The translations under genes were made by a program, and so were the position numbers. This document shows, piece after piece, positions 1,713 through 44,711 of a stretch of DNA of 64,000 nucleotides (its first letter is position 1; every line of letters starts with the position of its first letter). The DNA lies in IMG/VR virus record IMGVR_UViG_3300007597_000002; one strand, given 5' to 3'. The notes under the pieces are model-generated. The model was not told where the DNA came from and made no database searches. It saw only the letters and a program-made list of their open reading frames with translations. Source of the DNA: an uncultured virus (IMG/VR IMGVR_UViG_3300007597_000002) (lineage: Duplodnaviria > Heunggongvirae > Uroviricota > Caudoviricetes).

Positions 1713-1721
1713 GGAATTCTA

Positions 1722-10835: not shown

Positions 10836-11054
10836 ATGGGCAAGACATATTATAAGTCATCGAAATCAGATGATGATAGTTTTGGTGGTCGTTCAGGGAA
10901 ACCTGCCAAACATGCTAGTGGTCGAAAGACTGGTGGTATGAGAACGATAAATAGTTATGTTGAAGAAGATTATGATTTAAACAATGAAGACTTTGATGAC
11001 GACATTGAACTAGATGATAAAATACAAATCGACCATACTAAAAATAAACCGTAA
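10836..11054 (+). CDS. hypothetical protein (basic N-terminus, acidic C-terminus)
   Basis: 72-aa ORF between gp59 and gp32. Confidence 0.65.
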   Translation: MGKTYYKSSKSDDDSFGGRSGKPAKHASGRKTGGMRTINSYVEEDYDLNNEDFDDDIELDDKIQIDHTKNKP

Positions 11055-11075
11055 TATTAATATAAAGGAAATACG

Positions 11076-11978
11076 ATGGACATTCAAACACTCCGCAAAA
11101 TGCGCAATCAAGACTTCGGAAAAATCTCTGGAGAATTCGATAAGATTGCTAATCCCCAAACCGAAAAGAAATCATATTCAGACGATCGCTTCTGGCGTCT
11201 CGAAGGTGACAAAGCTGGCAATGGCACAGCAACTTTCCGATTCCTACCACGTGTAGAAGGTGATGAACTCCCATGGGTTCGAATCTTTTCTCATGGCTTC
11301 CAAGGTCCAACTGGAAAGTGGTACATCGAAAATTCTCTAACCACTCTTGGTGAGAATGACCCTGTTGGTGAGTTGAACACAACTCTTTGGAACTCTGGTT
11401 CTGAAGCCAACAAAGAAATCGCTCGTAAACAAAAACGTAAGTTGTCATTTATTGCCAACATTCTCATTGTGTCTGATCCAAAGCATCCAGAGAATGAAGG
11501 TAAGGTATTCTTGTTTAAATTTGGCAAGAAAATCTTTGATAAGATCATGGACAAAGCACGTCCAACTTTCGAAGACGAAAAGCCTGTAAACGTGTTTGAT
11601 TTGTGGGAAGGTTCTAACTTCAAATTGCGTATGCGTAAGAAAGATGGCTACGCAAACTATGACGAATCTTCTTTTGCAGATCCAGCACCTGCTGCTTCTG
11701 ATGAAGACTTGGTTCGTATCGTAAATGGTCAGTACAAGTTGTCTGAGTTTACTGATCGTAGTAACTTCAAGTCTTATGATGAGTTGAAGAAGAAACTAGA
11801 TGCAGTTCTTTCTGGTGATTCTTTTGCTGGTAAGTCTGCTGCACAAATGGCTGAAGAAGAAGATCGTCCTGTTGCATCTGCACCAAAGATGGCTTCTAAA
11901 CCAGCACCTGTGTCAAAGTCGATGGATGACGATGAAGATGTTATGTCTTATTTTCAGAAGATCGCTAAAGAAGACTAA
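11076..11978 (+). CDS. gp32: single-stranded DNA-binding protein gp32 (lacks the T4 zinc Cys residues)
   Basis: DDRFW, GNG.A..RFLP, HGFQGPTGKWYIENS, FGKKIFDKI, acidic tail. Confidence 0.95.
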   Translation: MDIQTLRKMRNQDFGKISGEFDKIANPQTEKKSYSDDRFWRLEGDKAGNGTATFRFLPRVEGDELPWVRIFSHGFQGPTGKWYIENSLTTLGENDPVGELNTTLWNSGSEANKEIARKQKRKLSFIANILIVSDPKHPENEGKVFLFKFGKKIFDKIMDKARPTFEDEKPVNVFDLWEGSNFKLRMRKKDGYANYDESSFADPAPAASDEDLVRIVNGQYKLSEFTDRSNFKSYDELKKKLDAVLSGDSFAGKSAAQMAEEEDRPVASAPKMASKPAPVSKSMDDDEDVMSYFQKIAKED

Positions 11979-11990
11979 TTAGTTTTTACC

Positions 11991-12024
11991 AAAAAGAAAG
12001 GGGACTTTCGTCCCCTTTTTTATT
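11991..12024. terminator. bidirectional terminator between convergent gp32 and tape measure genes
   Basis: A-run + GGGGAC-TTTC-GTCCCC + T-run. Confidence 0.88.
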
Positions 12025-14113
12025 ATGCGAATTTAGATCGTAACCAACTACTTGCTGATGATTCAGGATTTCTTATCGCTGGTCTTGTTACTTGCGTTAC
12101 ATTAGAGTTGTTTGTTACTGGTGCATTTACTGCGACAGTGCCACCACCCTTAGCATTTTGTCCCTTAACTTCGGCAGAAGTATCTGCATTCATTTTAGAA
12201 GCATTGGCTACTTTAGTACCATCCACTTGCATGGCACCACCAGCTGCAACGAATGCTGTTGCTTTTAGCCATGGGAAGTCATTGACAGCATCCATTCCAC
12301 CTTTTGGAATTTTACCGAATGCTACCATAGCACCACTCAACTTATCGAGTCCCATTGCTGCTTTCATCACACCTTCGCCATTTTGACCAATTTTAATCAA
12401 TTGTTCAACAGGACTATCAGTGCCAATAGTCAATAGTCTACCAACTAAGTTTCCGATACCAGCAACTGCCTGACCAGCACCAAATGCTGCCATAGCAAGA
12501 CCCAATGCAGCTACACCTGCTGCTACTGATAGTAAATTACTACCATCCATCTTTCCTATTCGTTCGAGACCATCGGTCATGTCAGAAAAACCTTTTCCAA
12601 CTGCCTGCATGGCTTCACCGATTACATACAACGCACCACCCATTAATCCTAATGCCACTGCGCCAGCAATAATTAAAGGTGCTGCTGTACCAGCAATTGC
12701 ACCGATTATTCCAAGTCCTGCCACTGCTGCTAATCCTTTACCGATTGTTTCCCAATCTAATCCTTGGAAATTTTGCATAGCATCACCAGTGATCCATAGA
12801 GCACCAGCAAGTATTACTAATGCAGCACTGCCAATTAACATAGATGGAGAAGATTTTCCAAGCAACATAGCAATGCCAGCAAGTCCTAACAATGCCACCC
12901 CACCCATAGCGATACTTTCCCATTCGACATCAGCGAATTCTTGAAGTGCTTTTGCCGTTACGTATAATGCGCCAGCAAGTATCACCATCGATGCAGCACC
13001 TTTGATTACATTTGCATTACCAAATGAACCAATACCTTTAGCGATTCCAGTTAACAAACCTTGTATACCTGATCCAATACCTTTACCTAGTCCAGCGATA
13101 CCACCACCAAGTGCTTTAAGACCAGCACCAATTCCAGCCATTATACCGCCACCACCTTCTCCACCAGATGCAGCCTGTGCTTTAACTGGTGTAGAATCAC
13201 CTCTGGTATTTTCCTCAATCTTTTCCAGAAGATCAGTTTGAGAACCCATCATTCGATTATTTTCTAATTCAGTTTCTTCAGACTTACCTGCATTTGCTGC
13301 AGCTGTGGTAGCAGTTGGTGGTTTTAATCCAGCCGAGTTACCACTAAGATTACTAAGTATCGCTCTGTTCACTGGAGTTGGACTTTTCACATCAGTACTA
13401 TAATCGTACTTTGCATATTCATCTGCACTGGCTTGTCGTTTATCTAATAAAGCACGACCTGCTTTAGATTTACCCATCTCGTCATCACTATGACCCGTAA
13501 TAGATTTAAACTTTTCTATAGCAGCTTCATTTTTCTTTATTTCTTTTGACGCATTGTGCGCACCCTCATAATCTTTTTTCAGCTGTTCACGTGTTCCTGG
13601 ATTACCGAGTGCTTTTTGTTTTTCAATAAACTTTTCTCTTTCCATACTTTTATTGAATACACCACCGATGTTAAGTGCACCCATTACCTTCTGTTTCACA
13701 TTACTAACAGATAGAGATTGTTTTAAGTTGTCTTTTTTATCTTGAATCTTTTCGCCGAGTGTTTTGAATGTTGTCATACCTTTAGCAATTTCAGATATTG
13801 CTTTGGCTTCTTTGTCCCATTCTTTTTGGAAATCTTCGTCAGACTTCCCCATTCGTTTCGTAGTTTTTAACTGATCAGATAGAGTATCTCTAATTTTAGC
13901 GAGGATAGCAGTATCGCTTGCCTGTCCTCCACCAAGTTTAGCAGCAGTGGCAGATTGAACCTTATTCGATAATTCCATTAGTTGTTTAATGGAAGTCAAC
14001 TCACCTAATGTAGCAGATTGAACTGCTAAAATTTGTGAGAATCCTTCAGTAGTAGTACTGGTCTGTTCTCTAATACTAGAATTTACCGAACTGTTGCTGG
14101 TTCTCTTTGCCAT
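12023..14113 (-). CDS. tape measure protein (gp29 position)
   Basis: Helical N-terminal half, Gly/Ala-rich hydrophobic repeats (WESIAMG/WETIGKG), NAPVTNNSN tail; follows gp26/gp51. Confidence 0.7.
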   Translation of the reverse strand: MAKRTSNSSVNSSIREQTSTTTEGFSQILAVQSATLGELTSIKQLMELSNKVQSATAAKLGGGQASDTAILAKIRDTLSDQLKTTKRMGKSDEDFQKEWDKEAKAISEIAKGMTTFKTLGEKIQDKKDNLKQSLSVSNVKQKVMGALNIGGVFNKSMEREKFIEKQKALGNPGTREQLKKDYEGAHNASKEIKKNEAAIEKFKSITGHSDDEMGKSKAGRALLDKRQASADEYAKYDYSTDVKSPTPVNRAILSNLSGNSAGLKPPTATTAAANAGKSEETELENNRMMGSQTDLLEKIEENTRGDSTPVKAQAASGGEGGGGIMAGIGAGLKALGGGIAGLGKGIGSGIQGLLTGIAKGIGSFGNANVIKGAASMVILAGALYVTAKALQEFADVEWESIAMGGVALLGLAGIAMLLGKSSPSMLIGSAALVILAGALWITGDAMQNFQGLDWETIGKGLAAVAGLGIIGAIAGTAAPLIIAGAVALGLMGGALYVIGEAMQAVGKGFSDMTDGLERIGKMDGSNLLSVAAGVAALGLAMAAFGAGQAVAGIGNLVGRLLTIGTDSPVEQLIKIGQNGEGVMKAAMGLDKLSGAMVAFGKIPKGGMDAVNDFPWLKATAFVAAGGAMQVDGTKVANASKMNADTSAEVKGQNAKGGGTVAVNAPVTNNSNVTQVTRPAIRNPESSASSWLRSKFA

Positions 14114-31974: not shown

Positions 31975-34900
31975 ATGCTAGATTTTAATACCGAACCGTA
32001 TAATGATGATTTCGATGAAGAAAAAAAATTCTATCGAATTTTGTTTCGCCCTTCTTTTGCTGTTCAGGCACGTGAACTAACACAACTCCAGACAATCCTT
32101 CAGAATCAGATTACTCGCCATGGCGATAATATTTTCAAACAAGGTGCCATGGTTATACCTGGACAGGTATCTGCTGAAACTATTACTAATACTACAAAAG
32201 GTATTGATTATGTTAAACTACAGGCATTGTATAATGGTGTAGCCGTTGCTACATTTATTGATTCTTTGCAGGGTTTAGTTATCACAGGTTCAAGTGGATT
32301 AAAAGCACAGGTTATCAAGGCACAACGAGCAGAAGATACAGATCCAACAACTCTTTATGTTCGCTATTTAAATTCTGCAACTGATACTACGCAAAAAGTT
32401 TTTGCTGGTAATGAAGTTCTTCATACTGATACTGGTTTTTATTTTCAAGCACAAGCAAGTTCAGCTACAGGTAAAGGATCTTTGGCTACAATTGAGAGAG
32501 GTGTCTATTACATTAATGGACATTTTGTTCTTTGCGATACACAAGCAATTACACTAAACAAATATGACCCTTCTCCATCATATCGTGTTGGATTGAATGT
32601 ATCAGAAAATATCACTACTGCAGAAGATGATGAAACTCTTTTAGATAATGCGCAGAATAGTTATAACTTTGCTGCTCCAGGTGCTCATCGTTACTTTATT
32701 GATTTAACACTATCTAAAAGATCTTTGGAGTCAACTGATGATCAGAACTTCGTAGAATTGATTCGTGTAACTGGTGGTGTTGTTAATACCATTGTTAAAG
32801 AAACTGCATATAATATAATCTATACTCAGATTCAAAATGAGATGGAAAGAAGAACATTCGATACTAATGGTGATTACACTGTTAATGGATGGTCTGTAGA
32901 TGTTCGTGAATCACGTAATAATAATCGTGGAGCATGGGCTCAAAATAGTGCATATCTAATTAATGATATTGTTACATATGGTGGTTATACATATACTGCT
33001 AAAAATAGTGCATCTTCAGTAACTACTCCTCCAACTCATAATTCTGGCTCAGCATATGATGGTGCAGGTAATAGCGGTGTTAACTGGCAATATGATGAAA
33101 ATCCAGTATACAATCGTGGTATAAAATTAACTGGTAATGAAGGTGATCTTGCTATCGGTATTGATGCTGGAAGAGCATATGTTTCTGGAGCAGAACTTGA
33201 AAATCCTGCTACTGCATACATAACAGTACCAAAGGCTAGAGATTATGATCAAGCGATCGATTCTGTAATAACTCCAGTTGTTGGAAATTATGTTATTGTA
33301 ACTAACTTAAATTATGTACCAACTATCGATACAGGTACGTTAGTTAATATCTATGACGGTATCACTGGATCTTCTAATCGAGGTAATGCGTCAGCAGTTT
33401 CTAATGCACAATTAATCGGAACTGCCCGTGCTCGTTTTATTGAGTGGCACAATATTCTTCCTTATGGATCTACTTCACAATATAAATTAGGTCTATGGGA
33501 TATCCAGATGAAATCTGGATTTGATTTCAACAGAAATGCTAAGTCTTTCTATACTGTTGGCAGTGGTGTTGGGACTTCTTTCTCAGCCGACATACAACCA
33601 GCATTAGTTAATTTAACTGGTTCAGTTACTGCAGTTGCAACTAATACTGTAACTGGTGTTGGGACTTCTTTCCTAACAGATTTAAAAGTTGGTGATTACA
33701 TCCTTATTAACGATTCTCTGTATAGAAGAATCTCAGCCATTACTTCTCAAAATTCTTTAACAGTTGATAGCTCAATATCATCAGTGACTGGTGTAAAATA
33801 TCAACTAGTAACAACTGTTCTACAAGAAGCCATAGCAAATAATTTAGTGTTCCCTCTTGCATATAGTTCTGTTCGTTCTATGAGAACATCTGGCAATAGT
33901 GGAGTTAACAATTTAAACTATACAGCTTATGTTAAGTTTAATAGTGTAAATACTGCTACTACTACTCTTGCATTAAATACATCAGGTAATTTTGCTTCTG
34001 CTGCAGATAATGATAGTTATCTTGTAGTTAAAGATTCTGATGGATCTGTTGTGAACATCACAGCATCTAATATTAGTGGTACTGGTACTTCTAACGTAAG
34101 TATCACTGTTCCGACATCTGGAACATATACTGTAATTGCTGCAGTTATTCGTTCTGGATCTGGTTTCGAAAAATCTAAAACACTAACACAAGTCACTGAA
34201 ACATTCATTAGTGCTACTGCTGCTCAACAAGCATCAATCGTTCTAGATAAAGCAGATATATTCAGAATCATAAGCATTAAGATGGCTCCAGGAACTGCCT
34301 TTGATAGCACTCCAGGATCTTATACTCAAGATATTTCAGAGAGATATTCTTTCGATAATGGTCAGCGTTTGACACATTATGATTATGGTAAATTAAATTT
34401 ACTACCATCTTATACTCAACCATCTAATCCAGTTCAAGTTGTATATGAATACTTTGAACATGGTGCTGGTGACTATTTTGATGTTAACTCTTATAGTGGT
34501 ATTGATTACAAACAGATTCCTGCCAATCTACGAGACTCTATTGATTTTAGACCAAGAGTTGCTAATAAAACAACTGGTAGTGGAGTGAAGAACTTTACTA
34601 GCACAGGCTCTTCTATGACTTCTATACCAAAACGTGGTGAATATGTCAAAGCAGATTACAGTTACTATCTTGCTAGAAAAGATAAAATTATTTTAGAGCC
34701 AACTGGTAAATTAGTTGATATACAAGGTGTTCCATCTACTGTTCCTGGAGAACCAGTAACACCAGCACTTGGAATGGTATTGTATAATCTATCTCTAGAA
34801 CCATATACTTTTGGTACTGCATCAACTAATGTGAGCGTTTCAAAAGTTGATAATAAACGCTACACAATGCGTGACATCGGTAAGTTAGAAAATAGAATTA

Positions 34901-37900
34901 ATAATTTAGAGTACTACACATCATTATCTCTGTTGGAATCAGAAACATCTAGTTTAAAAATTCCAGATAGTAATGGTATGGATAGAATGAAGAATGGTTT
35001 TGTTGTTGATAACTTCGGTAGCAGTGCTCTTGTAGCTGATCCAAAAACTTCTGATCTTAGCTGTTCTATTGATATGGGGGCTAACTTACTGCGCCCAGCG
35101 CACACAATGCATAATGTAGATTTAATCGAACAAGCCTCTACTACTTCTGCAAGAACTAATGCTAATTATCAGCTAACTGGTGATATTATAACTTTACCTT
35201 ATACTACTACACCTCTGGTCACACAGGCATATGCGTCTAGACTAGAATATGTTAATCCATTTGCCATCTATACATTCTTAGGAAGTGTTCAGATAACCCC
35301 AGCATCAGATGATTGGTTTGACACTGACAGAGTACCTGATCTTATTCAGCAGGTAGAGGGGAATTATAATTCTCTTAAGAATATGATAGATTTAAATAAT
35401 GGTTGGCCAATTTATGGCGCATGGACTACAGATTGGTCTGGAACTCCTCAACATACTGTTACTACTAATAACTACATAAGTGGTAATCTTTTGATGGAAA
35501 CAACTACTGATTCATGGTCTCAGACTGGTATTAAGTCAAGAAATGGTACTAAAACTTCTATAGTAGCAAAAACAGATTATGAGTCAGTTGGTGACAGAAC
35601 AGTATCAACTTCTATCGTTCCTTATGTACGATCACGTTTTGTATTAGTTCAATCTAAACAATTAAAGCCATCTACTCGCTTTTATGCTTATTTTAATGAA
35701 GTTGATATAAATTCATATTGTACTCCAACGACTAAACTGGTGTATACTCCAACAGGTTCTACTGAAATTCTAAAAGCAGCAAACCATAAACTTTGGAATA
35801 CTTCAACTAATGTCGGTGGATCTAGCACAGACATTAAAAGAAGAATCGGTACAGACGTACAAGTTTGTTTAACACGTGGTGACGTAATAACAAAATCAGA
35901 CAATTCTGCATCAGCAGTAGTTGTTGGTAAATATTTAATACATAATGATGATGGTACTACATCTTATGCGCTTGATTTAGTTAATATTATCGGAACATTT
36001 AGTTCAGGTAATACATTTACTGGATCTATTAGTAATCAAACAGGAACTGTAGTTTCGGTAACAACTAATACTACATTAACTACAAATCAATCAGGTGAAG
36101 TAAACTTCTTGTTTAATATACCAAATACTGAATCTGTTCGTTTCCGTACTGGTAAATCTACATTAAAACTAATGGATTCTGCAACTTCTACAGGAAATTA
36201 TACTTCTCGTGGAATCGGCACTTATGAAGCCACTGGAACACTTCAAACTGTTCAAGGTATAGTTAATGCTGTTAGAAATTCTACTATTGTTCAAGAACAG
36301 ATTAATCCTCGTGCTGGTGATCCTAATACTTATGAGGTCGTTAATAGAAATGGTAGTTCTACTTCTACCAGAGTTATTGCTGATTTAACACCAGCATGGA
36401 CAGATCCACTTGCACAATCATTTTATGTAGAATCAAGAGGTGGTGCATTCTTAACAAGTATTGATTTATTCTTTGCAACTAAATCTGCAAATGTCCCAGT
36501 AACTGTACATATTCGTGAGATGGTCAACGGTAATCCGACACATCAGGTTCTTCCATTCAGTAGTGTAACTTTAAATCCAGATTTGGTTAATGCTCCTGTT
36601 TCTGGAACTACTGCAGAAGCATCAGGATATACATCTGTTGCTCTGCCTGATGGTAATTCTTATGCAGACTATAACACAGCAACGAAATTCACATTCGAAT
36701 CTCCTGTCTTTGTAGAAGACAGTAAAGAGTATGCATTTGTTATTCAGTCTGATTCAAATGATTACAGAGTTTGGATTTCTAATATGGGTGATGTCATCCC
36801 AGGAACAAGTAGAACTATTTCTGAACAACCATATGCTGGTGTAATGTTCAAATCTCAGAATGCTTCTACATGGACACCAGATCAAAATCAAGATATTAAA
36901 TTTACAATACATCGTGCTGTATTTGCTACAAATACGGTTGGTGCTATTGTTATGACGAATAATGTTTTACCTCATGACCAATTGAAAAATAACCCAATCC
37001 AAACTGTTACTGGATCTAATGTTATTAGAATTTGGCATCCTAATCATGGTATGTCTTCTGGTTCTAGTGTTCAACTTAGTGGATTGACTTCTAATATTAA
37101 TGGAATCCCAGTCGGTGAAATCAATACGACTAAAGTTATTGCTAACGTAGATGCTCATTGTTATACAATAACTACTAGCACAGTTGCTACTTCTACTGGT
37201 TATTCTGGTGGTAACTTACTAAAGGCTTCTAGAAATATTGCATATGATTTAATTAAACCAACTTTGCAGATGCAAACTTTCGGTGAATCATTAGCAAAAT
37301 TCTCTATGAAAACAACATCAGGAACATCACCTGATGGAGCACAAACATCATATGTTATAGATACTTCTTATTCTCCAGTTGTAGTTGATATTGACAACAT
37401 TTGGGACAAAACAAGAGTTGTTGCTTCTGAGGTTAATGAAAACACTTATATGAGTGGAGAAAAATCTCTACAATTGTTGTGTCAGATTTCTACTACAAAC
37501 AATGCAGTTTCTCCTGTTATTGATACTGCTCGTTCTAGTGCAGTATTAGTTTCAAATAAATTAAATTATCCTACTGAATCTAATACAAATGTGGCTTCTT
37601 TAGATACAAAAATAATGTTTGCTGGAGCAGCTGGAACTATTACTGGTGTTCCAAATAGTGGTGTGGCAGTAGCAGTTACTGGTGGATCATATAACTATGC
37701 TATTACTGGAACTCTATTAACTTTATCAGGCTCTCAATCCTTAACTCAAGGAACACAGTACTATTATGGAAATAAACTTTACCTATGTACTGTAGGAGGA
37801 ACTGCTAGTGTCAGCGCACCTACTCACACATATGGTGTAGCAACAAATGGCACAGCAACTTTACAGTGGGTTGGAAGTGCATCTTCTATAACTTCTACTA

Positions 37901-38493
37901 ATGCGACTGTTAGAGGATTAATGGCTGGACTTGGAATTGGTAGATATCTAACTACTGGTGGTTCTTCAAACACAGCAAATAATAGTACATGGATAGTTAC
38001 TGGCTATGGTGATAATGGTACTACTGGAACTGTTTATGTAGATTCTGTTTCTGGGGCTGTATTCACTGCAGAGACAGTTACTTCTTCTGCAATTTATGTT
38101 GCAGTCAGAGAATTATTCTACGATGAAATCGCCCCACGTGGAGGAAGTTCGCTAAGTAAGTATGTAACAACACCTATTAAATTTGCGAATTCTTCTAGTT
38201 TCGTGAGAATTAAACTTGGAGCTAATTGCCCGAATGAGGCTGATATCAAAGTTTACTATAAGACTTGTCTGGGTGATAGCAAACAGTTAGATACTATTAG
38301 ATATACGCTAGCCTCCGCTGATAATAATGGAATAATTAAAGTCGACAATGGAAACTATGCATTCTCTGATGTAGACTATACTATGAACAATATGACACCA
38401 TTCGATACTATTGCGATTAAAATCGTTATGCAGTCCACTAATAGTTCTGCTACTCCAATCATCAAAGACTTTAGGGTTATTGCCTGCGCATAA
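31975..38493 (+). CDS. large virion structural protein (VrlC/DUF4815-like)
   Basis: PYNDDFD, LFRP...VQARELTQLQ, APGAHR, YTMRDIGKLE.RI.NLEYYTSL, DPLAQSF, FKSQNASTW. Confidence 0.8.
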   Translation: MLDFNTEPYNDDFDEEKKFYRILFRPSFAVQARELTQLQTILQNQITRHGDNIFKQGAMVIPGQVSAETITNTTKGIDYVKLQALYNGVAVATFIDSLQGLVITGSSGLKAQVIKAQRAEDTDPTTLYVRYLNSATDTTQKVFAGNEVLHTDTGFYFQAQASSATGKGSLATIERGVYYINGHFVLCDTQAITLNKYDPSPSYRVGLNVSENITTAEDDETLLDNAQNSYNFAAPGAHRYFIDLTLSKRSLESTDDQNFVELIRVTGGVVNTIVKETAYNIIYTQIQNEMERRTFDTNGDYTVNGWSVDVRESRNNNRGAWAQNSAYLINDIVTYGGYTYTAKNSASSVTTPPTHNSGSAYDGAGNSGVNWQYDENPVYNRGIKLTGNEGDLAIGIDAGRAYVSGAELENPATAYITVPKARDYDQAIDSVITPVVGNYVIVTNLNYVPTIDTGTLVNIYDGITGSSNRGNASAVSNAQLIGTARARFIEWHNILPYGSTSQYKLGLWDIQMKSGFDFNRNAKSFYTVGSGVGTSFSADIQPALVNLTGSVTAVATNTVTGVGTSFLTDLKVGDYILINDSLYRRISAITSQNSLTVDSSISSVTGVKYQLVTTVLQEAIANNLVFPLAYSSVRSMRTSGNSGVNNLNYTAYVKFNSVNTATTTLALNTSGNFASAADNDSYLVVKDSDGSVVNITASNISGTGTSNVSITVPTSGTYTVIAAVIRSGSGFEKSKTLTQVTETFISATAAQQASIVLDKADIFRIISIKMAPGTAFDSTPGSYTQDISERYSFDNGQRLTHYDYGKLNLLPSYTQPSNPVQVVYEYFEHGAGDYFDVNSYSGIDYKQIPANLRDSIDFRPRVANKTTGSGVKNFTSTGSSMTSIPKRGEYVKADYSYYLARKDKIILEPTGKLVDIQGVPSTVPGEPVTPALGMVLYNLSLEPYTFGTASTNVSVSKVDNKRYTMRDIGKLENRINNLEYYTSLSLLESETSSLKIPDSNGMDRMKNGFVVDNFGSSALVADPKTSDLSCSIDMGANLLRPAHTMHNVDLIEQASTTSARTNANYQLTGDIITLPYTTTPLVTQAYASRLEYVNPFAIYTFLGSVQITPASDDWFDTDRVPDLIQQVEGNYNSLKNMIDLNNGWPIYGAWTTDWSGTPQHTVTTNNYISGNLLMETTTDSWSQTGIKSRNGTKTSIVAKTDYESVGDRTVSTSIVPYVRSRFVLVQSKQLKPSTRFYAYFNEVDINSYCTPTTKLVYTPTGSTEILKAANHKLWNTSTNVGGSSTDIKRRIGTDVQVCLTRGDVITKSDNSASAVVVGKYLIHNDDGTTSYALDLVNIIGTFSSGNTFTGSISNQTGTVVSVTTNTTLTTNQSGEVNFLFNIPNTESVRFRTGKSTLKLMDSATSTGNYTSRGIGTYEATGTLQTVQGIVNAVRNSTIVQEQINPRAGDPNTYEVVNRNGSSTSTRVIADLTPAWTDPLAQSFYVESRGGAFLTSIDLFFATKSANVPVTVHIREMVNGNPTHQVLPFSSVTLNPDLVNAPVSGTTAEASGYTSVALPDGNSYADYNTATKFTFESPVFVEDSKEYAFVIQSDSNDYRVWISNMGDVIPGTSRTISEQPYAGVMFKSQNASTWTPDQNQDIKFTIHRAVFATNTVGAIVMTNNVLPHDQLKNNPIQTVTGSNVIRIWHPNHGMSSGSSVQLSGLTSNINGIPVGEINTTKVIANVDAHCYTITTSTVATSTGYSGGNLLKASRNIAYDLIKPTLQMQTFGESLAKFSMKTTSGTSPDGAQTSYVIDTSYSPVVVDIDNIWDKTRVVASEVNENTYMSGEKSLQLLCQISTTNNAVSPVIDTARSSAVLVSNKLNYPTESNTNVASLDTKIMFAGAAGTITGVPNSGVAVAVTGGSYNYAITGTLLTLSGSQSLTQGTQYYYGNKLYLCTVGGTASVSAPTHTYGVATNGTATLQWVGSASSITSTNATVRGLMAGLGIGRYLTTGGSSNTANNSTWIVTGYGDNGTTGTVYVDSVSGAVFTAETVTSSAIYVAVRELFYDEIAPRGGSSLSKYVTTPIKFANSSSFVRIKLGANCPNEADIKVYYKTCLGDSKQLDTIRYTLASADNNGIIKVDNGNYAFSDVDYTMNNMTPFDTIAIKIVMQSTNSSATPIIKDFRVIACA

Positions 38494-38494
38494 A

Positions 38495-38722
38495 ATGGAT
38501 TATTTGAAAGTTCAAGGACATGATGGCTTAGTTAGAGATACCTCTACTGGAGCCATTATAAATACTAATAGAACAGAATATGAAACCTATATGAGCAGAA
38601 AAAAGATGGCTGAGCAGAGAGAGTTAGAGATTTCTCAACATACAGAAGACATAAATATATTGAAGAACGAACTGCAAGACATAAAATCTCTTATTTTACA
38701 GCTTTTGCACAAAAAAGATTGA
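38495..38722 (+). CDS. small conserved virion-associated protein
   Basis: KVQGHDGLVRD..TGAIINTN plus a coiled coil; start moved to ATG 38495. Confidence 0.75.
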   Translation: MDYLKVQGHDGLVRDTSTGAIINTNRTEYETYMSRKKMAEQRELEISQHTEDINILKNELQDIKSLILQLLHKKD

Positions 38723-38736
38723 CTAAGGAAACTTAA

Positions 38737-39942
38737 ATGCCAAATATTACATCCGCATCTATTACGCTAAGATCGACTAAGGGTAGTCCTCTTACGAATA
38801 CAGAAGTCGATAATAACTTTAATAACTTAAACACAGCCATTGCGACTGGTTTAACTGCAGCCAGCTATACCGCAGCTGATGTTCTAGCCAAACTAGTTAC
38901 TGTTGATGGTGCTGGATCTGGTCTAGACGCTGACTTACTTGATGGACTGACTACTGCTTCAGCAAATACAGCATCTACTGTTGTTGTTCGTGACGCTTCT
39001 GGTAACTTCTCTGCTGGTACTATTACTGCAGCGTTAACTGGCACAGCGACTATCGCTTCCAGCTTGAATTATACAGTGGCTATCTCTGGTGGTGGTACTG
39101 GTGCTACTACTGCATCATCTGCTAGATCTAACTTAGGTTTGGCAATCGGCTCTGATGTTCAGGCTTATGATGGTGAACTAGCTGCGTTGGCTTCTACCAC
39201 TTCTTCAGCAAATGCACTACCTTACTTTACTGGCGCAGGTACTGCTTCTACTACAACTCTTTCTGCATATGGTCGCACTCTTATCGATGATGCAGATGCA
39301 TCTACTGCTCGTGGTACACTTGGTTTAACGATTGGTTCTGATGTTCAGGCTTATGCGGCAAACTTAGCTGCACTTGCAGGTGTTTCTGGTAATGGTCTTT
39401 ATATTCGTACTGGTGCAGGTACTGCTGTTAATAGATCAATTGCAGCTGGTTCTGGTATTACTGTCTCCAATGGTGATGGTGTTTCTGGTAATCCAACGAT
39501 TAATGCAAACGTATTGTCTGTTCAGGGTAATACTGGTAACGTAATCGTTTCAGTTCCTGTTACTTCTGTTCAGGGTAATACTGGTGCGGTTATTGTTTCT
39601 AACATTGCTGGTAATGCTGCCACTGCCACCAACGCACATGCTGCACATACTTCTCAGTTCTCACACCATGCTCAGTATACTCCATGGTCTCAGGTTCAAG
39701 GTCGTCCACACCACTTATCTCAATTTGCCAACGACTTAGGTAACTATGGTGGTTGGGTTCCACATAATACTAAACATACTAACCCAGATGTCAGCTCTAC
39801 CATTGGGCGAAATGCTGGTGGTGTAGGAAATTGTGGTAATATCGTATCTAGAAACGTATCGAGAATGCACTTAGATACAAACCACCATTTTGATCCTCAC
39901 CACCACCACAATAATTGTACCAATTGTAACTGTAACTGTTAA
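38737..39942 (+). CDS. tail fibre protein with His/Cys-rich C-terminal peptide
   Basis: [45 protein letters not shown] fibre motifs; ends [14 protein letters not shown]. Confidence 0.85.
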
Positions 39943-39959
39943 TAGGTAATAGGAAAACT

Positions 39960-40895
39960 ATGCAATATATAACTAAACTCCAACATCGTGCTAGATATTT
40001 GGGATACCCAAATGCAGTATTACCAAAACATTTCGATGATTCGGTAGGTTTAACTGGTATCACTGATCCTGTAGAATACGATAGAATATCAGCTGCTGCT
40101 GACCCAACTATTTTCGAACAGATGGAATTTGATTTTAAGTGGGATTTAAATTTAACTGGTAATATTTTAAAAGCAAAATTTATTAATGTTACCGAAAATA
40201 ATAGAATTATTAATAATTTTTCTATTGATATGTCATATTTAAGTAATGCAGACGCATGTACTCTTTGGTATATTAAAGATGATATTATTTTAAGTAATAT
40301 ATCCAAAGTACTTGATGCAGATGCAGAAGAACTAACTATAGTAGATACAGATCTAGTTAATTCTTTCGCAAATACTTTACCAACCAAAAATTTTAATATT
40401 TATGGAACCCATGGTTTAATAGTATTTTATGTGACTAAAGATAATCCAACTCCTGCTGATATTATCACTTGTATTATTAGACCTATAGTTAGCACAGATA
40501 CGGACTATAATACAGTTTTACCAGAAATGTTAAGAAATAATATCGAAATTAAACCACTAGGTGATTATAGAGTTACTGTTACAGGTAATTTGACTAAGCA
40601 TCCTGCTGATCCTACTACATTACTGATTATTGATACACTTTTACCAGAAATAACAGTGACATCTTCAACAGTATCTGGTGATATTGTTACAGTTAATTTT
40701 ACAACAGATTCGAAAATCAATAACATTTATCTGGTCCAATCTGAAGGTTATTTACCAAAATTAAAAATCCCAGTTACTAATGGAACTGGTTCTTTTAAAG
40801 TAGTCACAACTGGTATGGATGCAGGTGATACTATTAAAGTTAAAATGGGTTTTAAATATTGGGTTAACAGAACTGAGTTCACTAAAATATTATAA
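39960..40895 (+). CDS. hypothetical protein with beta-sandwich-like C-terminus
   Basis: 311 aa, AGGA SD, between the fibre and the radical SAM gene. Confidence 0.75.
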   Translation: MQYITKLQHRARYLGYPNAVLPKHFDDSVGLTGITDPVEYDRISAAADPTIFEQMEFDFKWDLNLTGNILKAKFINVTENNRIINNFSIDMSYLSNADACTLWYIKDDIILSNISKVLDADAEELTIVDTDLVNSFANTLPTKNFNIYGTHGLIVFYVTKDNPTPADIITCIIRPIVSTDTDYNTVLPEMLRNNIEIKPLGDYRVTVTGNLTKHPADPTTLLIIDTLLPEITVTSSTVSGDIVTVNFTTDSKINNIYLVQSEGYLPKLKIPVTNGTGSFKVVTTGMDAGDTIKVKMGFKYWVNRTEFTKIL

Positions 40896-40912
40896 AATTT
40901 ATATTTTGAACA

Positions 40913-40954
40913 TATCCTATCGGAGATAAATACTCTGATAGGATAATTTATTTT
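40913..40954 (+). terminator. 13-bp hairpin with ATAAATA loop and T-rich tail
   Basis: TATCCTATCGGAG-ATAAATA-CTCTGATAGGATA-ATTTATTTT. Confidence 0.6.
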
Positions 40955-40964
40955 GAGGGATAGT

Positions 40965-42356
40965 ATGGCAACTTTTGAAATTTCAGCATGGAGTCCAGCA
41001 GAAAAGGTTACTAAGAAATTATTTTACAATAGTTCTCTTAGCACATTAAAGTGGGAAGATGGTTCCAATGTTATTGCAGATGTTAGAACACAACCTGATG
41101 TTGTTTCTCCTGCAAAGATTGAACATGGTAAAAAAGATTTAAAAACTGTTAAGATTCAACTAGGTCTTTCTTGTAACTTTGAATGTGATTATTGCAATCA
41201 AAGATTCGTACCACATGCAGATGAAACTAATCCAAACGATGTAGATCCATTTGTATTGAATATGGACTCATGGTATGAAGGTGGGTCTGATGGATTTGGT
41301 AAAGATACAAACTTCGAGTTTTGGGGTGGTGAACCATTTGTTTATTGGAAAACAATGAAGCCTCTTGCAGAAGCACTTAATAAAAAATACCCAAATGCTC
41401 GTATGTCAGTAATTACAAATGGTAGTTTATTAGACATAGAAAAAAATGAGTGGTTAGAACGATATAATTTTGGTGTGGCGGTTTCACATGATGGTCCAGG
41501 ACAACCAGTTCGTGGACCAGATCCTTTAGATGATCCAAAATCTAAAGAAGGTATTATAGATCTTTATAAAAGACTTGCACCAAAGCGTATGTTTAGTTTT
41601 AATTCTATGATTAACTCTAAGAATACTAGTCGTGCTGAGATTGAAAAATTCTTCTTCAATTTTGTTGATACTGAAATCGGTGAGAAATATAAACAGTTCT
41701 TAACAATAGGCGAAGGTGCTTTCGTTGATGCTTATGATGAGGGTGGATTAGCAAATTCTTTAGTTGATGGTGAAGAAGATATTTCTTATAGAAATCAAGC
41801 ATTAGAAGAATTGCGTGCTGGTAAGGTAACAAGATTTGATGTTATCGGGCAGAAAGTCGGTGGGTTTATTGACTCATTAGCGAATGGTGTTAGAATCGAA
41901 TCACTACCCCAAAAGTGTGGTATGGATAAATCTAATTCTATTGCTCTTGACTTAAATGGTAATGTTTTAACCTGCCAAAATGTAAGTCCAGTTTCTACAA
42001 ATCCCGCAGGTATATCTCATAAACTTGGACATATATCTGATCTTTCTTCAACTAGATTAGATTCAGCTACTCATTGGAGTGATAGAAAAGAATGCCCAAA
42101 CTGCCCAGTAGTACATATTTGCAAGGGTGCTTGTATGTTTCTTTCTGGTCCACTATGGGATGCTTCTTGTGATAATGCATTTAGTGATAATATCATCCCA
42201 TTTTGTATCGCAATTGAAGAGATAACAGGATGTATCCCTGAGTATATCGAGGGTCCATTAAGAGAAGATCGTAAAGATATTTTCTGGTGGGTTAAGGGTA
42301 AACCAGAAAAGGTTAGAAAACCTAAAAAGATTATACCGATTGTGATGGCATCATGA
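40965..42356 (+). CDS. radical SAM enzyme with SPASM domain
   Basis: CNFECDYC (CxxxCxxC), FWGGEP, ITNG, SHDGP; SPASM Cys pattern KCG...TCQ...CPNCPVVHICKGAC...C; GAGGGA SD before ATG 40965. Confidence 0.92.
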   Translation: MATFEISAWSPAEKVTKKLFYNSSLSTLKWEDGSNVIADVRTQPDVVSPAKIEHGKKDLKTVKIQLGLSCNFECDYCNQRFVPHADETNPNDVDPFVLNMDSWYEGGSDGFGKDTNFEFWGGEPFVYWKTMKPLAEALNKKYPNARMSVITNGSLLDIEKNEWLERYNFGVAVSHDGPGQPVRGPDPLDDPKSKEGIIDLYKRLAPKRMFSFNSMINSKNTSRAEIEKFFFNFVDTEIGEKYKQFLTIGEGAFVDAYDEGGLANSLVDGEEDISYRNQALEELRAGKVTRFDVIGQKVGGFIDSLANGVRIESLPQKCGMDKSNSIALDLNGNVLTCQNVSPVSTNPAGISHKLGHISDLSSTRLDSATHWSDRKECPNCPVVHICKGACMFLSGPLWDASCDNAFSDNIIPFCIAIEEITGCIPEYIEGPLREDRKDIFWWVKGKPEKVRKPKKIIPIVMAS

Positions 42357-42667
42357 GTAGTTTCTTTAAAGGATACGTATTAGAGATTAATCAATTCCCT
42401 AGAATTGTAGGAAACATTGGAACTATCGAACACTATACAGTCAAAGAAGTATTTGAATTTGATAGTGATACTAAAGAATATGGGTACAGAGATAGCCTAA
42501 TTCCACTACAATCTGTTATAAATAAAGATGAGATTGACCTAAATACAATTAAAGATCTTATAAATAATAAGGTGGCTTTCTTGAGAAGAACCTTAAATTT
42601 TCAGAACCAAACACAAGTCTGGTCTTTTGATACCAGCAAATTAGGAGAACTAAAAAATGACAGTTAA
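42353..42667 (+). CDS. hypothetical protein, translationally coupled to the radical SAM gene
   Basis: ATGA overlap; 104 aa. Confidence 0.7.
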   Translation: MSSFFKGYVLEINQFPRIVGNIGTIEHYTVKEVFEFDSDTKEYGYRDSLIPLQSVINKDEIDLNTIKDLINNKVAFLRRTLNFQNQTQVWSFDTSKLGELKNDS

Positions 42668-43604
42668 AAATGTAAAATGGGTTATCGCTCATGAGCCTAT
42701 TGGTTTATTTTTGAAGGTAGCCGAAGCATTTTCCAAAGAAGTTAACGAAAGAACTAATGGGAAATTTAATGTTGAGATTCTCTCATTGACTGAGTATTCT
42801 CAAAAGTACAATTTCGGTAAACAACTAACAAAACGATCTATGATGGATTTAGTTGGTTCTGGACAAGTTGAGATGGGTCACATCTATACAACTTGGCTCG
42901 CAGATATCAATCCAGATCTTAATGTTTTAGATTTACCATTCTTGTTTAGAGATCACGATCATGCTGATGCTATTCTTGATGGTCCAATCGGTGCTGATTT
43001 GTTAGCTGGTGTTGAGAAGAACTCTCAGATCAAAGCAATGGCATTTACATATTCTGGTGGATATCGTGTGGTTCCTGCTAATTTTAAAGCAGATACGATT
43101 GAATCTTGGAAAGGTAAAAAAGTTAGAATTAGTTCTAGCCCAGTTGCCCAAGCAACTTTCGAAACACTCGGTGCAATTGCAAATCCTAATATCGAATTAG
43201 AACAAATGAATGAACAAGCCGATCGTGGAAACATCGATGCAGGTGAATCAACTTATGTTCGCATTTTCCCACTACAGCAAAACAAATCTTTCAAGTATGT
43301 TAATGATACTGCACACAGTTTGTTCTTGACTTCTATTATTGTCAATGAGGCTTTCTTCAATCAGTTTGACGATGAAACTAAACAGATCATGTCTGAAGCA
43401 GCATTTAATGCAGCAAAGGCAGAACGTAAAGAATCTGTTGCAGATATTCCAAATATTTTAGATCAATGTAAAGCTGAAAAAGTTGAAGTTATCTCTATGT
43501 CTAAATCTGAACAGAAAAAGATGCAAGATCTATTGACCCCTCTCCATGATAGATTTGAGGCTTCCTTTAGTGATGGATTAGTCAAGAGCATTAAGTCTCA
43601 TTAA
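42657..43604 (+). CDS. DctP/TRAP-type solute-binding-fold protein, no signal peptide
   Basis: F...V.E.T.G, V..G.VEM, LDLPFLFRD.DH, GKKVR, F..LGA, IDAGE. Confidence 0.82.
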   Translation: MTVKNVKWVIAHEPIGLFLKVAEAFSKEVNERTNGKFNVEILSLTEYSQKYNFGKQLTKRSMMDLVGSGQVEMGHIYTTWLADINPDLNVLDLPFLFRDHDHADAILDGPIGADLLAGVEKNSQIKAMAFTYSGGYRVVPANFKADTIESWKGKKVRISSSPVAQATFETLGAIANPNIELEQMNEQADRGNIDAGESTYVRIFPLQQNKSFKYVNDTAHSLFLTSIIVNEAFFNQFDDETKQIMSEAAFNAAKAERKESVADIPNILDQCKAEKVEVISMSKSEQKKMQDLLTPLHDRFEASFSDGLVKSIKSH

Positions 43605-43625
43605 TCTAAACTAAATATATTATAC

Positions 43626-43655
43626 AGGGGATGTTTAGCATCCCCTTTTTATTTT
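43626..43655 (+). terminator. Rho-independent terminator-like hairpin
   Basis: AGGGGATG-TTTAG-CATCCCCT followed by a T-run. Confidence 0.8.
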
Positions 43656-44711
43656 ATGGAAAATATAATGAAACCTAGAATTTTATATTATAACAAAAAA
43701 CAAGCACCTTTCTTAATTAATAGAGATGCTTCTTCAATGTCACCATTTTTATCTAAAACGTATACATATAAAATTTTTAATTCATATGAGACACTTGGAT
43801 TAAATAAACATAATATGGTATATGATAGATCTGGTTCTGTACCACATTATTTAAATATTGCAGAAGATGCCCACCCAATACCAGAGGTGGGTATTTCTTT
43901 TAATAAATCATTTTATCAAGCATGTGAAGAACGTGCAAAGCACCTCCTAAGTCTTAATAAAGTAGTACATGTACTTTGGTCTGGTGGAATTGATAGCACT
44001 TTTGTTTTATTCATGTTAAAGAAATTCTCCAACGATCCCGATCAGGTTAGAGTTTGGGGTACATTAAATTCTATCTTAGAATCTGGTGATATGTTTGATA
44101 GAAGATTAAAGAATGAATTTCCTTACACTATCCTAGAACCAACAGATAATGAGTTTTCCTTTAATGTAAATGAATGTATTTTTGTCAGTGGGATGGGTGG
44201 GAATCAGTTATTTGGACCAACAGATGATATGTTCGCCACTGGTGGAACTGCTATGTTCCACCACACTCTTGGTACTCCAGAAACTATATACGAATCTTAC
44301 GAGAATAACATAGACCCTAAACTATTAGAATTTCTGGATCCAATGATAAAGAATTCTTATAGGAAAATTGAAACAGTCGCCGATCTAAGATGGTATTGTA
44401 TTTTTAATCTAGACTGGTACACTGGCTTATATGAACATAGAACAATGCTTCAGATAGAAAAGACTAAAAAGATGCATGCGTTTTTTGATTCTGACGATCT
44501 ACAACGCTGGGCTATGACTACTAAAGAACCATTCACCAAAGTTCGTGGGAATGCCAATACACATCGTTGGCAAATGAGGCAAATTCTGTCCGAAGAATTC
44601 GGAGAACGAGATTATGCTTTAAACAAATCAAAGAAAATATCAAACCTAAACGTCCAACGTCCTCAGTGGCTATTTTTACTAGACGATTTCCATAATGTCC
44701 TGATCGACTAA
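43656..44711 (+). CDS. asparagine-synthetase-like PP-loop ATP pyrophosphatase, synthetase domain only
   Basis: VLWSGGIDST PP-loop; FVSGMGGNQLFG matches the AsnB SGEGADELFG motif; no N-terminal Cys glutaminase domain. Confidence 0.7.
   Translation: MENIMKPRILYYNKKQAPFLINRDASSMSPFLSKTYTYKIFNSYETLGLNKHNMVYDRSGSVPHYLNIAEDAHPIPEVGISFNKSFYQACEERAKHLLSLNKVVHVLWSGGIDSTFVLFMLKKFSNDPDQVRVWGTLNSILESGDMFDRRLKNEFPYTILEPTDNEFSFNVNECIFVSGMGGNQLFGPTDDMFATGGTAMFHHTLGTPETIYESYENNIDPKLLEFLDPMIKNSYRKIETVADLRWYCIFNLDWYTGLYEHRTMLQIEKTKKMHAFFDSDDLQRWAMTTKEPFTKVRGNANTHRWQMRQILSEEFGERDYALNKSKKISNLNVQRPQWLFLLDDFHNVLID

Follow-up and report, generated by a model that had tools for sequence, protein, structure and literature searches.

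A phage-encoded candidate protein-maturation module with an Asn/Asp-Cys ladder at the end of a tail-fibre protein as its proposed substrate

Described radical SAM/SPASM systems and the phage locus

To our knowledge, the substrates that radical SAM (rSAM) enzymes with a SPASM domain are known to crosslink are short antibiotic-like peptides and a very small number of cellular proteins. For the streptococcal RiPP pair NxxcB/NxxcA (NxxC subfamily), the relevant passages of PMC9389541 report that NxxcB links Cys to the beta-carbon of Asn, and that Ala, Gln and Asp can take the place of the acceptor Asn. The phage locus described here is comparable in that an rSAM enzyme accompanies a Cys/Asn motif, and the tolerated acceptors are the very residues that replace Asn in the tails of some relatives; this likeness is one of motif. 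It differs in that NxxcA, as those passages present it, has a single NxxC motif in a short leader-core peptide, whereas the phage motif is a direct alternation of Asn and Cys at the extreme C-terminus of a 401-aa fibre.

CrpC of Methanococcus voltae (Dieter et al. 2026, PMC13692751) is, in the sections of that paper that describe it, a SPASM rSAM enzyme with three [4Fe-4S] clusters which forms ranthionines on CrpA. As is proposed for the phage, its substrate is a Cys-rich protein encoded alongside and not a short peptide; CrpC and CrpA are, however, archaeal and cellular, CrpC has a predicted RRE according to the same sections, and the CrpC-related model TIGR04463 gives the phage enzyme only 28 bits against a cut-off of 525. 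The word "phage" is absent from the text of the CrpC paper. QhpD, in the account given in PMC13692751, is an rSAM/SPASM enzyme that makes intra-protein Cys-Asp and Cys-Glu thioethers, and its model (TIGR03906) is among the top NCBIfam matches of the phage enzyme (3.7e-11), but with 42 bits against a cut-off of 453 and over the N-terminal half only; furthermore, its substrate QhpC is a small, leader-bearing subunit of an enzyme, where that of the phage would be a fibre. PapB is the best NCBIfam match (NF047865, 1.6e-13; 50.6 bits against a cut-off of 340) and CteB (5wgg) the second-best solved sequence match (1.3e-11), and both have SPASM architecture in common with the phage enzyme. Unlike these ranthipeptide maturases (PapB/PapA, CteB/CteA), however, the phage enzyme falls far below the family cut-offs, matches over the rSAM core only and has no RRE-sized N-terminal domain, its N-terminal extension being only about 60 aa.

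In the passages of Zaragoza-Solas et al. (2020, PMC7029224) on host recognition clusters of pelagimyophages and cyanomyophages, radical SAM cassettes are mentioned without a function; these passages draw no link to a Cys-tailed fibre and propose no fibre modification, and our literature search found no description of this Cys-tailed fibre and rSAM system. The window analysed here, a 64,000-nucleotide stretch of an uncultured virus from IMG/VR, encodes at 31975-38493 a 2172-aa protein (phrog_358) of the type found in those clusters, as the same passages describe them; PMC7029224 uses the name VrlC for this type of protein.

The cassette and its proteins

A tail-fibre gene (38737..39942; 401 aa; tail-fibre PHROGs 24210, 7389 and 11303), whose product is the presumed substrate, is followed in the window by five non-structural-looking genes, all on the + strand, after which structural genes resume from 44774 (phrog_1084/3304 by PHROG profile search). 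The original prediction had placed in this order a fibre, a 311-aa protein, an rSAM enzyme, a 104-aa protein, a DctP-fold protein and a PP-loop enzyme before the next structural gene, and the open reading frames confirm it. The Cys-tailed fibre with a GNCGN motif is likewise borne out by translation and by the PHROG matches: GNCGN occupies residues 364-368, and the alternating Asn-Cys ladder NNCTNCNCNC forms the C-terminus (residues 392-401; codons at 39910..39939, + strand, then TAA). Such a tail occurs in just one of the 83 ORFs of at least 80 aa in the window. In an alignment of 13 fibre homologues, N396, C397, N398 and C399 are invariant and the preceding ~60 columns variable, such that the tail is the sole conserved part of the fibre C-terminal region; Ala, Gln or Asp stands in for Asn in the tails of some relatives. 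JWF, 2-1 and B. paludis MSh1 have a Hint domain (PF05203, 3e-12) immediately after the ladder, an arrangement that fits a self-cleavage that would leave the ladder as the new C-terminus. At some loci the tail proteins are small and take the place of full fibres: L294 has one of 61 aa, L030 three of 86-87 aa, L043 one of 95 aa and L047 one of 133 aa.

The rSAM enzyme (40965..42356, + strand) has 463 aa from the ATG at 40965, with a TTG upstream at 40953; its homologues start MATFEI in the alignment. It had been described as a CxxxCxxC radical SAM protein with a full set of SPASM cysteines, a description that the invariant cysteines and a match to TIGR04085 (SPASM; 34 bits against a cut-off of 27, residues 322-396) uphold. 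All 12 aligned homologues share C70, C74 and C77 (CX3CX2C); C318, C337, C377, C380, C386, C390 and C402 are likewise invariant in the alignment, and CPNCPVVHICKGAC fits the SPASM pattern CX2CX5CX3C. The radical SAM family PF04055 matches the protein at 1.3e-6 and 29.2 bits, slightly below the Pfam cut-off of 29.5, and at 31.5 bits, above the cut-off, in the genome search; phrog_1802 matches at 5e-62. Judged by these sequence features, the enzyme belongs to the radical SAM superfamily and to its SPASM-domain enzymes. Its nearest NCBIfam profiles are peptide and protein maturases (PapB, nif11, QhpD, anSME), and its nearest solved structures by sequence are 8vpo, CteB and anSME. Among the NCBIfam maturase models listed (PapB, CteB/SCIFF, QhpD, anSME, TIGR04463/CrpC-type, CcpM, CefB) none reaches its cut-off, and the phage enzyme is a family separate from the named maturase equivalogs. 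Pfam and NCBIfam scans of the cassette proteins, both general profile scans, gave no RRE family.

Two companions flank the enzyme. The 311-aa protein upstream (p311; 39960..40895, + strand) yields a structure model (pLDDT 91, pTM 0.85), in which residues 228-311 form an intimin/invasin-type Ig-like domain (VIA match to intimin, Z 9.2); the N-terminal 227 residues matched no solved fold in the structure search, and a BFVD search returned uncharacterised phage proteins and nothing else. Members of the p311 family range from ~250 to 330 aa, and RSP15 ORF047 is one of them. Downstream, the 104-aa p104 (42353..42667, + strand), whose start overlaps the rSAM stop (ATGA), had no Pfam, PHROG or NCBIfam match; its family HMM is found in 51 of 80 DctP loci, 49 of which carry the rSAM gene. 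Within this phage clade, the occurrence of p104 follows that of the rSAM.

The next gene (42657..43604, + strand) encodes a protein for which the predicted DctP fold is substantiated by PF03480 (1.7e-45) and NF037995 (116 bits against a cut-off of 50). Its alignment with solved TRAP solute-binding proteins begins at residue ~20, leaving no space for a signal peptide: its KVRI lies opposite their KMRT or KIRT, residue 20-23 corresponds to the start of their mature domain, and an upstream extension of the ORF is impossible. As a signal peptide is absent and none of the scanned cassette and flanking ORFs of the window matched the DctQ or DctM families, the protein has the DctP fold but is not a component of a TRAP transporter here.

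The last gene (43668..44711, + strand; 347 aa from the ATG at 43668, with another ATG upstream at 43656) encodes a PP-loop ATP pyrophosphatase-type protein, which had been taken for an AsnB-like enzyme. The PP-loop assignment holds, residues S105, G106, G107, D109 and S110 (SGGxDS) being invariant in 11 of 11 aligned homologues, but the likeness to AsnB extends to a weak Foldseek match only: the model (pLDDT 66 overall, 75-94 over core residues ~80-175) retrieves LarE, asparagine synthetase, carbapenam synthetase and beta-lactam synthetase at E values of 5e-3 to 2e-2, and the profile matches nitrile synthetase 9lei at E 0.055.

Late-promoter motifs had been reported ahead of the fibre, rSAM and PP-loop genes. 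ATAAATA is indeed present at 38651 and 40926, but position 43611 reads CTAAATA; the window contains no excess of the motif (19 copies observed against 29.7 expected), and the copy at 40926 sits inside the loop of a terminator-like hairpin (13-bp stem and T-rich run; 40913..40945, + strand) in the gap between p311 and rSAM. A 9-bp GC-rich hairpin followed by TTTTATTTTA lies between the DctP and PP-loop genes (43626..43646, + strand).

Co-occurrence of ladder and enzyme

That rSAM homologues should co-occur with Cys-tailed fibres had been set as a test beforehand, and the association proved strong in both directions, which supports the original prediction. Searches by tblastn and pattern scans gave 111 relatives of the enzyme (three GenBank phages, 28 IMG/VR loci and 80 genome loci kept of 152), 76 of which have at least 3.5 kb of upstream DNA. 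A strict criterion asked for a protein of at least 60 aa in which three or more X-C units in a row either end the chain or precede a Hint domain. By this criterion, 69 of these 76 loci encode a protein with an alternating (N/D-C)n tail, or 46 of 52 and 22 of 26 when enzymes are clustered at 90% and 70% identity. Inspection by eye raises the count to 74, as five of the seven strict misses are variant tails (NTNCQCGN in RSP15, NCRNCNC in L014 and L015, a Hint variant in L167, and L177); a tail is absent at the remaining two of the 76, namely L189, which is rearranged, and L224, where the enzyme lies beside an ABC/HlyD exporter.

In the reverse direction, the DNA pattern for NCNCNC followed by a stop gave 117 stretches in viral contigs, of which 32 are ORFs of at least 80 aa with at least 3.5 kb downstream. 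An rSAM gene (above 100 bits on the family HMM) follows 28 of these, with a p311 family member in the same 28; none of 54 short chance ORFs ending in NCNCNC has the rSAM gene. The other four proteins, which belong to three families (L046/L104, L049 and L092), have no rSAM or p311 gene within 7 kb. The L104 record, rated 100% complete, contains no member of the rSAM family anywhere, only a 16-bit match to PF04055. Since that genome is complete and without the enzyme family, an NCNCNC tail can occur without being modified by this enzyme, and it may have a function of its own, e.g. metal binding.

The conserved core is the trio of tail protein, p311 family and rSAM, and it moves between unrelated phage backbones: marine or freshwater-type T4-like phages, one Ackermannviridae-like phage, Achromobacter siphoviruses and many Burkholderiales prophage-like regions. 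The isolated phages JWF and RSP15 carry related versions. Accessory genes differ by locus, being one to three 2OG-Fe(II) oxygenases (PF13759, PF13640), or p104 with DctP and PP-loop, or none, and in this variability the phage loci resemble RiPP clusters. Among 56 well-covered DctP loci, the PP-loop gene is present in 50, and the rSAM gene and tail in only 39. DctP and PP-loop are a separable module that is also found without fibre tail or rSAM. The prediction that the five genes form a single system accordingly stands for the core trio, but not for the DctP/PP-loop pair, nor for p104, a clade-specific companion of the rSAM.

Proposed mechanism and alternative readings

We are inclined to regard the locus as a phage-encoded protein-maturation module whose substrate is the (Asn/Asp-Cys)n ladder that ends the tail-fibre protein, and whose proposed action is a thioether stapling of the tip. 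The proposed link between enzyme and tail is one of genomic association. Because ladder fibre and enzyme travel together across unrelated phages, the phages that carry the cassette probably modify their own fibre tips chemically, and Cys-to-Asn/Asp thioether crosslinking seems to us the most likely mechanism. The SPASM auxiliary clusters would bind cysteine thiolates of the tail and the 5'-deoxyadenosyl radical would abstract hydrogen from an adjacent Asn or Asp, giving sulfur-to-carbon (ranthionine-type) thioethers within a chain or among the three fibre chains, such that the host-contacting tip would be covalently stapled. In such a scheme p311, made with the fibre ahead of the hairpin, may be a tip-associated partner or chaperone, and p104, translationally coupled to the rSAM, a clade-specific helper of that enzyme. 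The DctP protein (a carboxylate binder) and the PP-loop protein (of carboxylate-adenylating type) may perform an extra step on a carboxylate, e.g. the fibre C-terminus, or alternatively some unrelated task. A fuller version, in which inter-chain Cys-Asn thioethers lock the three fibre chains, or fibre and p311, into a single covalent tip, and in this clade DctP and PP-loop also bind and activate the C-terminal carboxylate for a second modification, strikes us as rather improbable; were it true, a virion would have its receptor-binding end shaped by natural-product-style multi-step chemistry.

The same loci can be read in other ways. T4 fibres have His-X-His metal sites, and the ladder might have a comparable role, serving the trimeric tip mainly in metal binding or redox chemistry, the rSAM being idle on it, directed at another target, or concerned with metal or cluster loading only. 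This would agree with the three structural-protein families that bear NCNCNC tails without the enzyme, one in a complete genome, and with the His-rich C-terminal region of the fibre, where the GNCGN cysteine upstream of the tail is replaced by His in L010, L014 and L015, a swap typical of metal ligands. It leaves unexplained, however, why a dedicated SPASM enzyme and p311 stand behind the tail in 28 of 32 cases on unrelated backbones, and SPASM enzymes of known function act on peptides, proteins or cofactors; we consider it unlikely, noting that metal binding by the ladder and its enzymatic modification are mutually compatible. The enzyme might also carry out a different radical reaction on the tail, such as anSME-like conversion of Cys to formylglycine, epimerisation, or C-C or C-O crosslinking of Asn. 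Only anSME aligns over the full length including the SPASM part (TIGR03942, residues 70-394; 4k37, 70-391), the JWF copy is annotated as an anaerobic sulfatase-maturating enzyme, and a paper on radical SAM cyclopropyl synthases names 8vpo, the best solved match. The tail, however, does not contain C/S-x-P/A-x-R, the sulfatase motif, no sulfatase is encoded nearby, and its Cys and Asn/Asp are the donor and acceptor of known beta-thioether enzymes, which makes such a reaction appear doubtful to us.

We judge it very improbable that the product of the cassette is instead released, as a peptide or small protein of true RiPP or toxin-like kind for which the fibre-like N-terminus would be a large leader. 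The small tail proteins that replace full fibres would suit such a product, as would a Sulfuritalea MAG in which a 39%-identical rSAM gene follows an ABC transporter and an HlyD-type gene; yet the phage loci are without protease or exporter, their tail proteins lie within structural operons and match fibre families, and in the Hint-bearing versions cleavage would leave the ladder attached to the fibre.

Under the thioether reading, the enzyme probably acts on the part of a virion that binds the host, the fibre tip. If confirmed, such stapling would be a further level at which phages control host recognition and the stability of their particles, and would account for part of the radical SAM cassettes recorded without a function in pelagimyophage host recognition clusters. 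It would also make available a family of enzymes that staple proteins at a tag both simple and portable, a C-terminal (NC)n. The module is widespread, the enzyme family comprising 508 clusters of 50% identity at an E value of 1e-30 or better.

A radical SAM cassette within the fibre block

The window is a T4-like myovirus's structural region, with genes for baseplate, sheath, tube, portal and terminase, and comes from a source record of 110,195 bases that is rated 67% complete. After a 2172-aa protein (31975-38493; phrog_358) the fibre genes form a variable block, within which the genes of the cassette lie closely packed and all on the plus strand. The predicted layout, a Cys-tailed fibre ahead of five genes that include a radical SAM/SPASM enzyme, is borne out by the open reading frames and their profile matches. 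A 401-aa tail fibre with a Cys-tailed C-terminus (38737-39942; tail-fibre PHROGs) precedes the 311-aa protein p311 (39960-40895), the radical SAM/SPASM enzyme (from 40953 or 40965 to 42356), the 104-aa protein p104 (42353-42667), whose start overlaps the stop of the enzyme gene, a DctP-family protein (42657-43604) and a PP-loop protein (from 43656 or 43668 to 44711); fibre-related genes (phrog_1084/3304) appear again from 44774. No GenBank phage matched the cassette in a megablast search. Upstream of the fibre gene, an ORF listed from a TTG at 38411 (38411-38722) overlaps the 2172-aa gene at its 3' end; its homologues are 75-81 aa long, phrog_473 (virion structural protein) matches it from residue 29, and its translation probably begins at the ATG of 38495.

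The enzyme reaches 29.2 bits against PF04055 and, with a cut-off of 27, 34 bits against the SPASM model TIGR04085; phrog_1802 matches it at 5e-62. In an alignment of 12 diverse homologues the cysteines of the CX3CX2C motif (C70, C74 and C77) are invariant, as are C318, C337, C377, C380, C386, C390 and C402, and the enzyme is shown, as read from this alignment, to have the full set of features required of a SPASM maturase. Maturases of peptides or proteins are its closest matches among both named families and solved structures; the enzyme falls outside all curated maturase families, every score being far under the cut-off. With 508 clusters at 50% identity (E 1e-30 or better), it is by these measures a member of the radical SAM/SPASM class that forms a large family of its own.

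Late-promoter motifs had also been proposed at three positions in the cassette. ATAAATA is indeed present on inspection at 38651 and 40926, but the site at 43611 reads CTAAATA and the motif is not enriched, occurring 19 times in the window against 29.7 expected; with TATAAATA also at 4 observed against 7.7 expected, the T4 late-promoter reading was dropped as evidence. Two strong, terminator-like hairpins are found inside the cassette, one with a 13-bp stem and then a T-rich run after the p311 gene (40913-40945, with the ATAAATA of 40926 in its loop) and the other GC-rich with a T-run after the DctP gene (43626-43646), in a region that holds 9 terminator-like sites against 3.3 expected. The hairpin 3' of the p311 gene is consistent with the fibre and p311 being expressed above the enzymes.

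Co-occurrence of the enzyme with Cys-tailed proteins

The fibre of the window belongs with proteins whose C-terminus carries an alternating (N/D-C)n ladder, such as NCNCNC. In a tblastn search of GenBank phages, enzymes of 41-47% identity were found in Ralstonia phage RSP15 (Ackermannviridae) and in the Achromobacter phages JWF and 2-1. In RSP15 a 'side tail fiber' protein with the C-terminus ...SMSNTNCQCGN comes first, then proteins of 271 and 288 aa and the enzyme; JWF and 2-1 encode a 480-483-aa fibre with ...NCNCDCNCNCS and a Hint domain directly after it (PF05203, 3e-12), then a 240-aa protein and the enzyme. IMG/VR contributed a further 28 loci. A single-sequence scan of genome contigs recovered two weak enzyme cores only, and an alignment query was required; this yielded 152 relatives, 80 of which were retained, mostly from Burkholderiales (Limnohabitans, Polaromonas, Rhodoferax, B. 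paludis MSh1) and in phage-like surroundings.

The collection comprised 111 loci in all (L-numbers below), and the 76 with at least 3.5 kb upstream were counted. Under a strict rule, by which a same-strand ORF of at least 60 aa must contain at least three consecutive X-C units no more than 8 residues from its C-terminus or before a Hint domain, an upstream Cys tail is present at 69 of the 76 loci, a count that the original prediction had proposed as its test, and the association persists when enzymes are clustered at 90% identity (46/52) or 70% identity (22/26). The distance from the tail down to the enzyme ranges from 694 to 3939 bases, with a median of 1455. Five of the seven strict misses have variant tails on inspection (RSP15, L014, L015, L167 and L177), among them ...NCRNCNC in L014 and L015 and, in L167, NCDCNCNCGTCC followed by FP (Hint). 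The tail is absent at two loci (2/76), L189, which is rearranged, and L224, from a Sulfuritalea MAG. In L224 (2542-8302) a 39%-identical enzyme is encoded after an ABC transporter of 733 aa and a HlyD-type protein of 490 aa; no fibre was seen, and a reading of the locus for a small Cys-rich precursor or a Cys-tailed ORF revealed none; it may represent a cellular, exported-peptide version of the system.

The reverse search, in which a degenerate DNA pattern for NCNCNC plus a stop was sought in viral contigs, returned at least 117 stretches. Among the matches listed, 63 were ORFs of at least 80 aa, and 32 of these had at least 3.5 kb downstream; the enzyme, scored as present above 100 bits on the family HMM, accompanied 28 of the 32 eligible ORFs in those listed matches, and a p311 member was found at the same 28. 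Counted by distinct 40-residue tails, the figure is 22/26 among the matches listed. Short chance ORFs with the pattern served as an internal control and had the enzyme in 0 of 54, equal downstream DNA being available for 24 of the 54 (again among the matches listed). The association of tail and enzyme far exceeds chance and spans unrelated virion architectures.

Among the matches listed, the enzyme and p311 are both missing within 7 kb at four of the 32 eligible loci, whose tail proteins fall into three families. These are structural-region proteins of 184 aa (L046/L104), 202 aa (L049) and 184 aa (L092), the tail ORFs ending at position 7021 of each oriented locus. In the L104 record, rated 100% complete, the enzyme family is absent, PF04055 reaching a sub-threshold 16 bits elsewhere. 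Because of these exceptions, including a complete record, an NCNCNC tail can occur without the enzyme, and such a tail may have an independent role. L092 additionally encodes a 99-aa protein ending CGGCSCNC.

Proposed modification of the Cys ladder

The fibre C-terminus is variable apart from the ladder, its sole conserved element; in the tails, D, A, Q, T, S and G are seen as substitutes for Asn. Given the comparative evidence, we consider it probable that the enzyme modifies the Cys ladder of the fibre, and the interpretation of the original prediction, that the enzyme would modify the tip of the phage's own fibre, draws strong comparative support from these gene neighbourhoods. The nature of the product is a more tentative matter; by analogy, it could be a Cys-Asn/Asp thioether, in which the sulfur of Cys would be joined to an Asn or Asp carbon of the ladder, a step for which two papers offer support. 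NxxcB joins Cys to the beta-carbon of Asn and also accepts Ala, Gln and Asp at that position (PMC9389541). Enzymes such as QhpD and CrpC are able to act on proteins (PMC13692751). The strand-like context before the ladder (e.g. ...RSVKYFTNCDCNC) suggests that Cys and Asn would project on opposite faces; any links might run inside one chain or join the three chains. In JWF-type fibres, the Hint domain behind the ladder fits a self-cleavage that would leave the ladder C-terminal, in line with its strict C-terminal position elsewhere.

Further upstream in the fibre, the Cys of the conserved GNCGN motif (39826-39840, residues 364-368) is replaced by His in three homologues (L010, L014 and L015), and a His-rich stretch is Tyr-rich in other homologues; these swaps among His, Cys and Tyr suggest metal ligands in the C-terminal domain.

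Full-text searches of openly available papers brought up none that connects a radical SAM enzyme with a phage fibre. The nearest mention among them is that of radical SAM cassettes in pelagimyophage host recognition clusters (Zaragoza-Solas et al. 2020, PMC7029224). PMC12801897 was set aside as a precedent, as it places the radical SAM gene among 'antibiotic synthesis genes' of a cyanophage and not in a fibre cassette.

Companion genes of the tail and enzyme

By gene content, the conserved core is a trio of the tail protein, the p311 family and the enzyme. T4-like loci, RSP15 (ORF047, 1.4e-25) and most Burkholderiales loci pair the enzyme with a p311-family member, which stands before or after it and is at times duplicated. 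Proteins of 240 aa in JWF and 236 aa in L029 fill the p311 slot and have no match to the p311 HMM even at E 10. The structure model of p311 (pLDDT 91, pTM 0.85) predicts an intimin/invasin-type Ig-like domain at residues 228-311 (VIA Z 9.2, rmsd 2.2 over 81 residues). Fold searches against solved structures returned only generic Ig-like matches for this part, and the N-terminal 227 residues had no clear match; BFVD held uncharacterised phage proteins only and the protein atlas no usable match. A complex prediction of three copies of fibre 285-401 with p311 scored 0.00, a result that was run without controls and says nothing on binding. In RSP15, the 288-aa ORF046 (L001:6078-6944), between the p311 homologue and the enzyme, has no Pfam match.

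The remaining genes vary. One to three 2OG-Fe(II) oxygenases (PF13759, PF13640) occur in L023, L030, L057, L077 and Burkholderiales loci; the extras of L099 are a protein of 95 aa and a PP-loop-like one, and L044 has none. The set of p104, DctP and PP-loop genes is that of the window's clade, and in L017 it stands between the p311 gene and the enzyme. The five genes had been predicted to act as one system. A scan for DctP relatives gave 80 loci, with p104 in 51 and the enzyme in 49 of those 51. Flanks of at least 5 kb upstream and 2.5 kb downstream are available for 56 of the loci, of which 50 have a PP-loop family member and 39 the enzyme with a Cys tail; the other 17 have no tail by an 80-aa rule, although one of them, L294, has a 61-aa NC-ended protein and a 36% relative of the enzyme. 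Elsewhere, leaderless DctP proteins adjoin larger, distantly related PP-loop proteins, with fibre tail and enzyme absent. On these locus counts, p104 accompanies the enzyme in this clade, and DctP and PP-loop make up a separable pair, which is probably an add-on.

No upstream extension of the DctP ORF is possible, and residue 20-23 aligns with the start of the mature domain in solved TRAP binding proteins (best 4pdh, 2.1e-24); the protein therefore has no signal peptide. The motif 'KVRI' lines up with 'KMRT'/'KIRT' in these structures, the position of the carboxylate-binding arginine in TRAP binding proteins. The PP-loop protein has an invariant SGGxDS and by fold weakly resembles LarE, asparagine synthetase, carbapenam synthetase and beta-lactam synthetase (Foldseek E 5e-3 or worse, model pLDDT 66), and none of the searches assigned it to a subfamily (Pfam Asn_synthase E 0.098; NCBIfam LarE E 0.005; a marginal PDB profile hit to a nitrile synthetase, E 0.055). 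Known relatives of both proteins handle carboxylates, which is the sole hint to the role of the pair. The IMG/VR locus L277 (3832-8948) encodes, in order, a PP-loop-like protein, hydrophobic proteins of 156 and 436 aa, a protein of 362 aa whose N-terminus resembles a signal peptide, and a leaderless DctP. The two hydrophobic proteins resemble DctQ and DctM by size and hydrophobic N-termini only, and the locus may hold a complete TRAP system beside the leaderless DctP.

Small tail-bearing proteins replace the long fibre in L030 (three of 86-87 aa), L043 (95 aa), L047 (133 aa) and L294 (61 aa). The three of L030 are encoded in tandem (1802-2611), have similar N-termini (MSVILGNGIVTFGDG...) and each end in NCNCNC; downstream of them are two genes of the p311 family, three for 2OG oxygenases and the enzyme gene. 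A 488-aa protein of L043 (oriented 10986-12452; original 1570-3036, minus strand) was drawn in by tblastn as a PP-loop relative and removed from the PP-loop alignment when this showed CX3CX2C. Encoded directly after the SPASM enzyme, it is, by its motif GCIFQCKFC, a second and different radical SAM enzyme of the same cassette.
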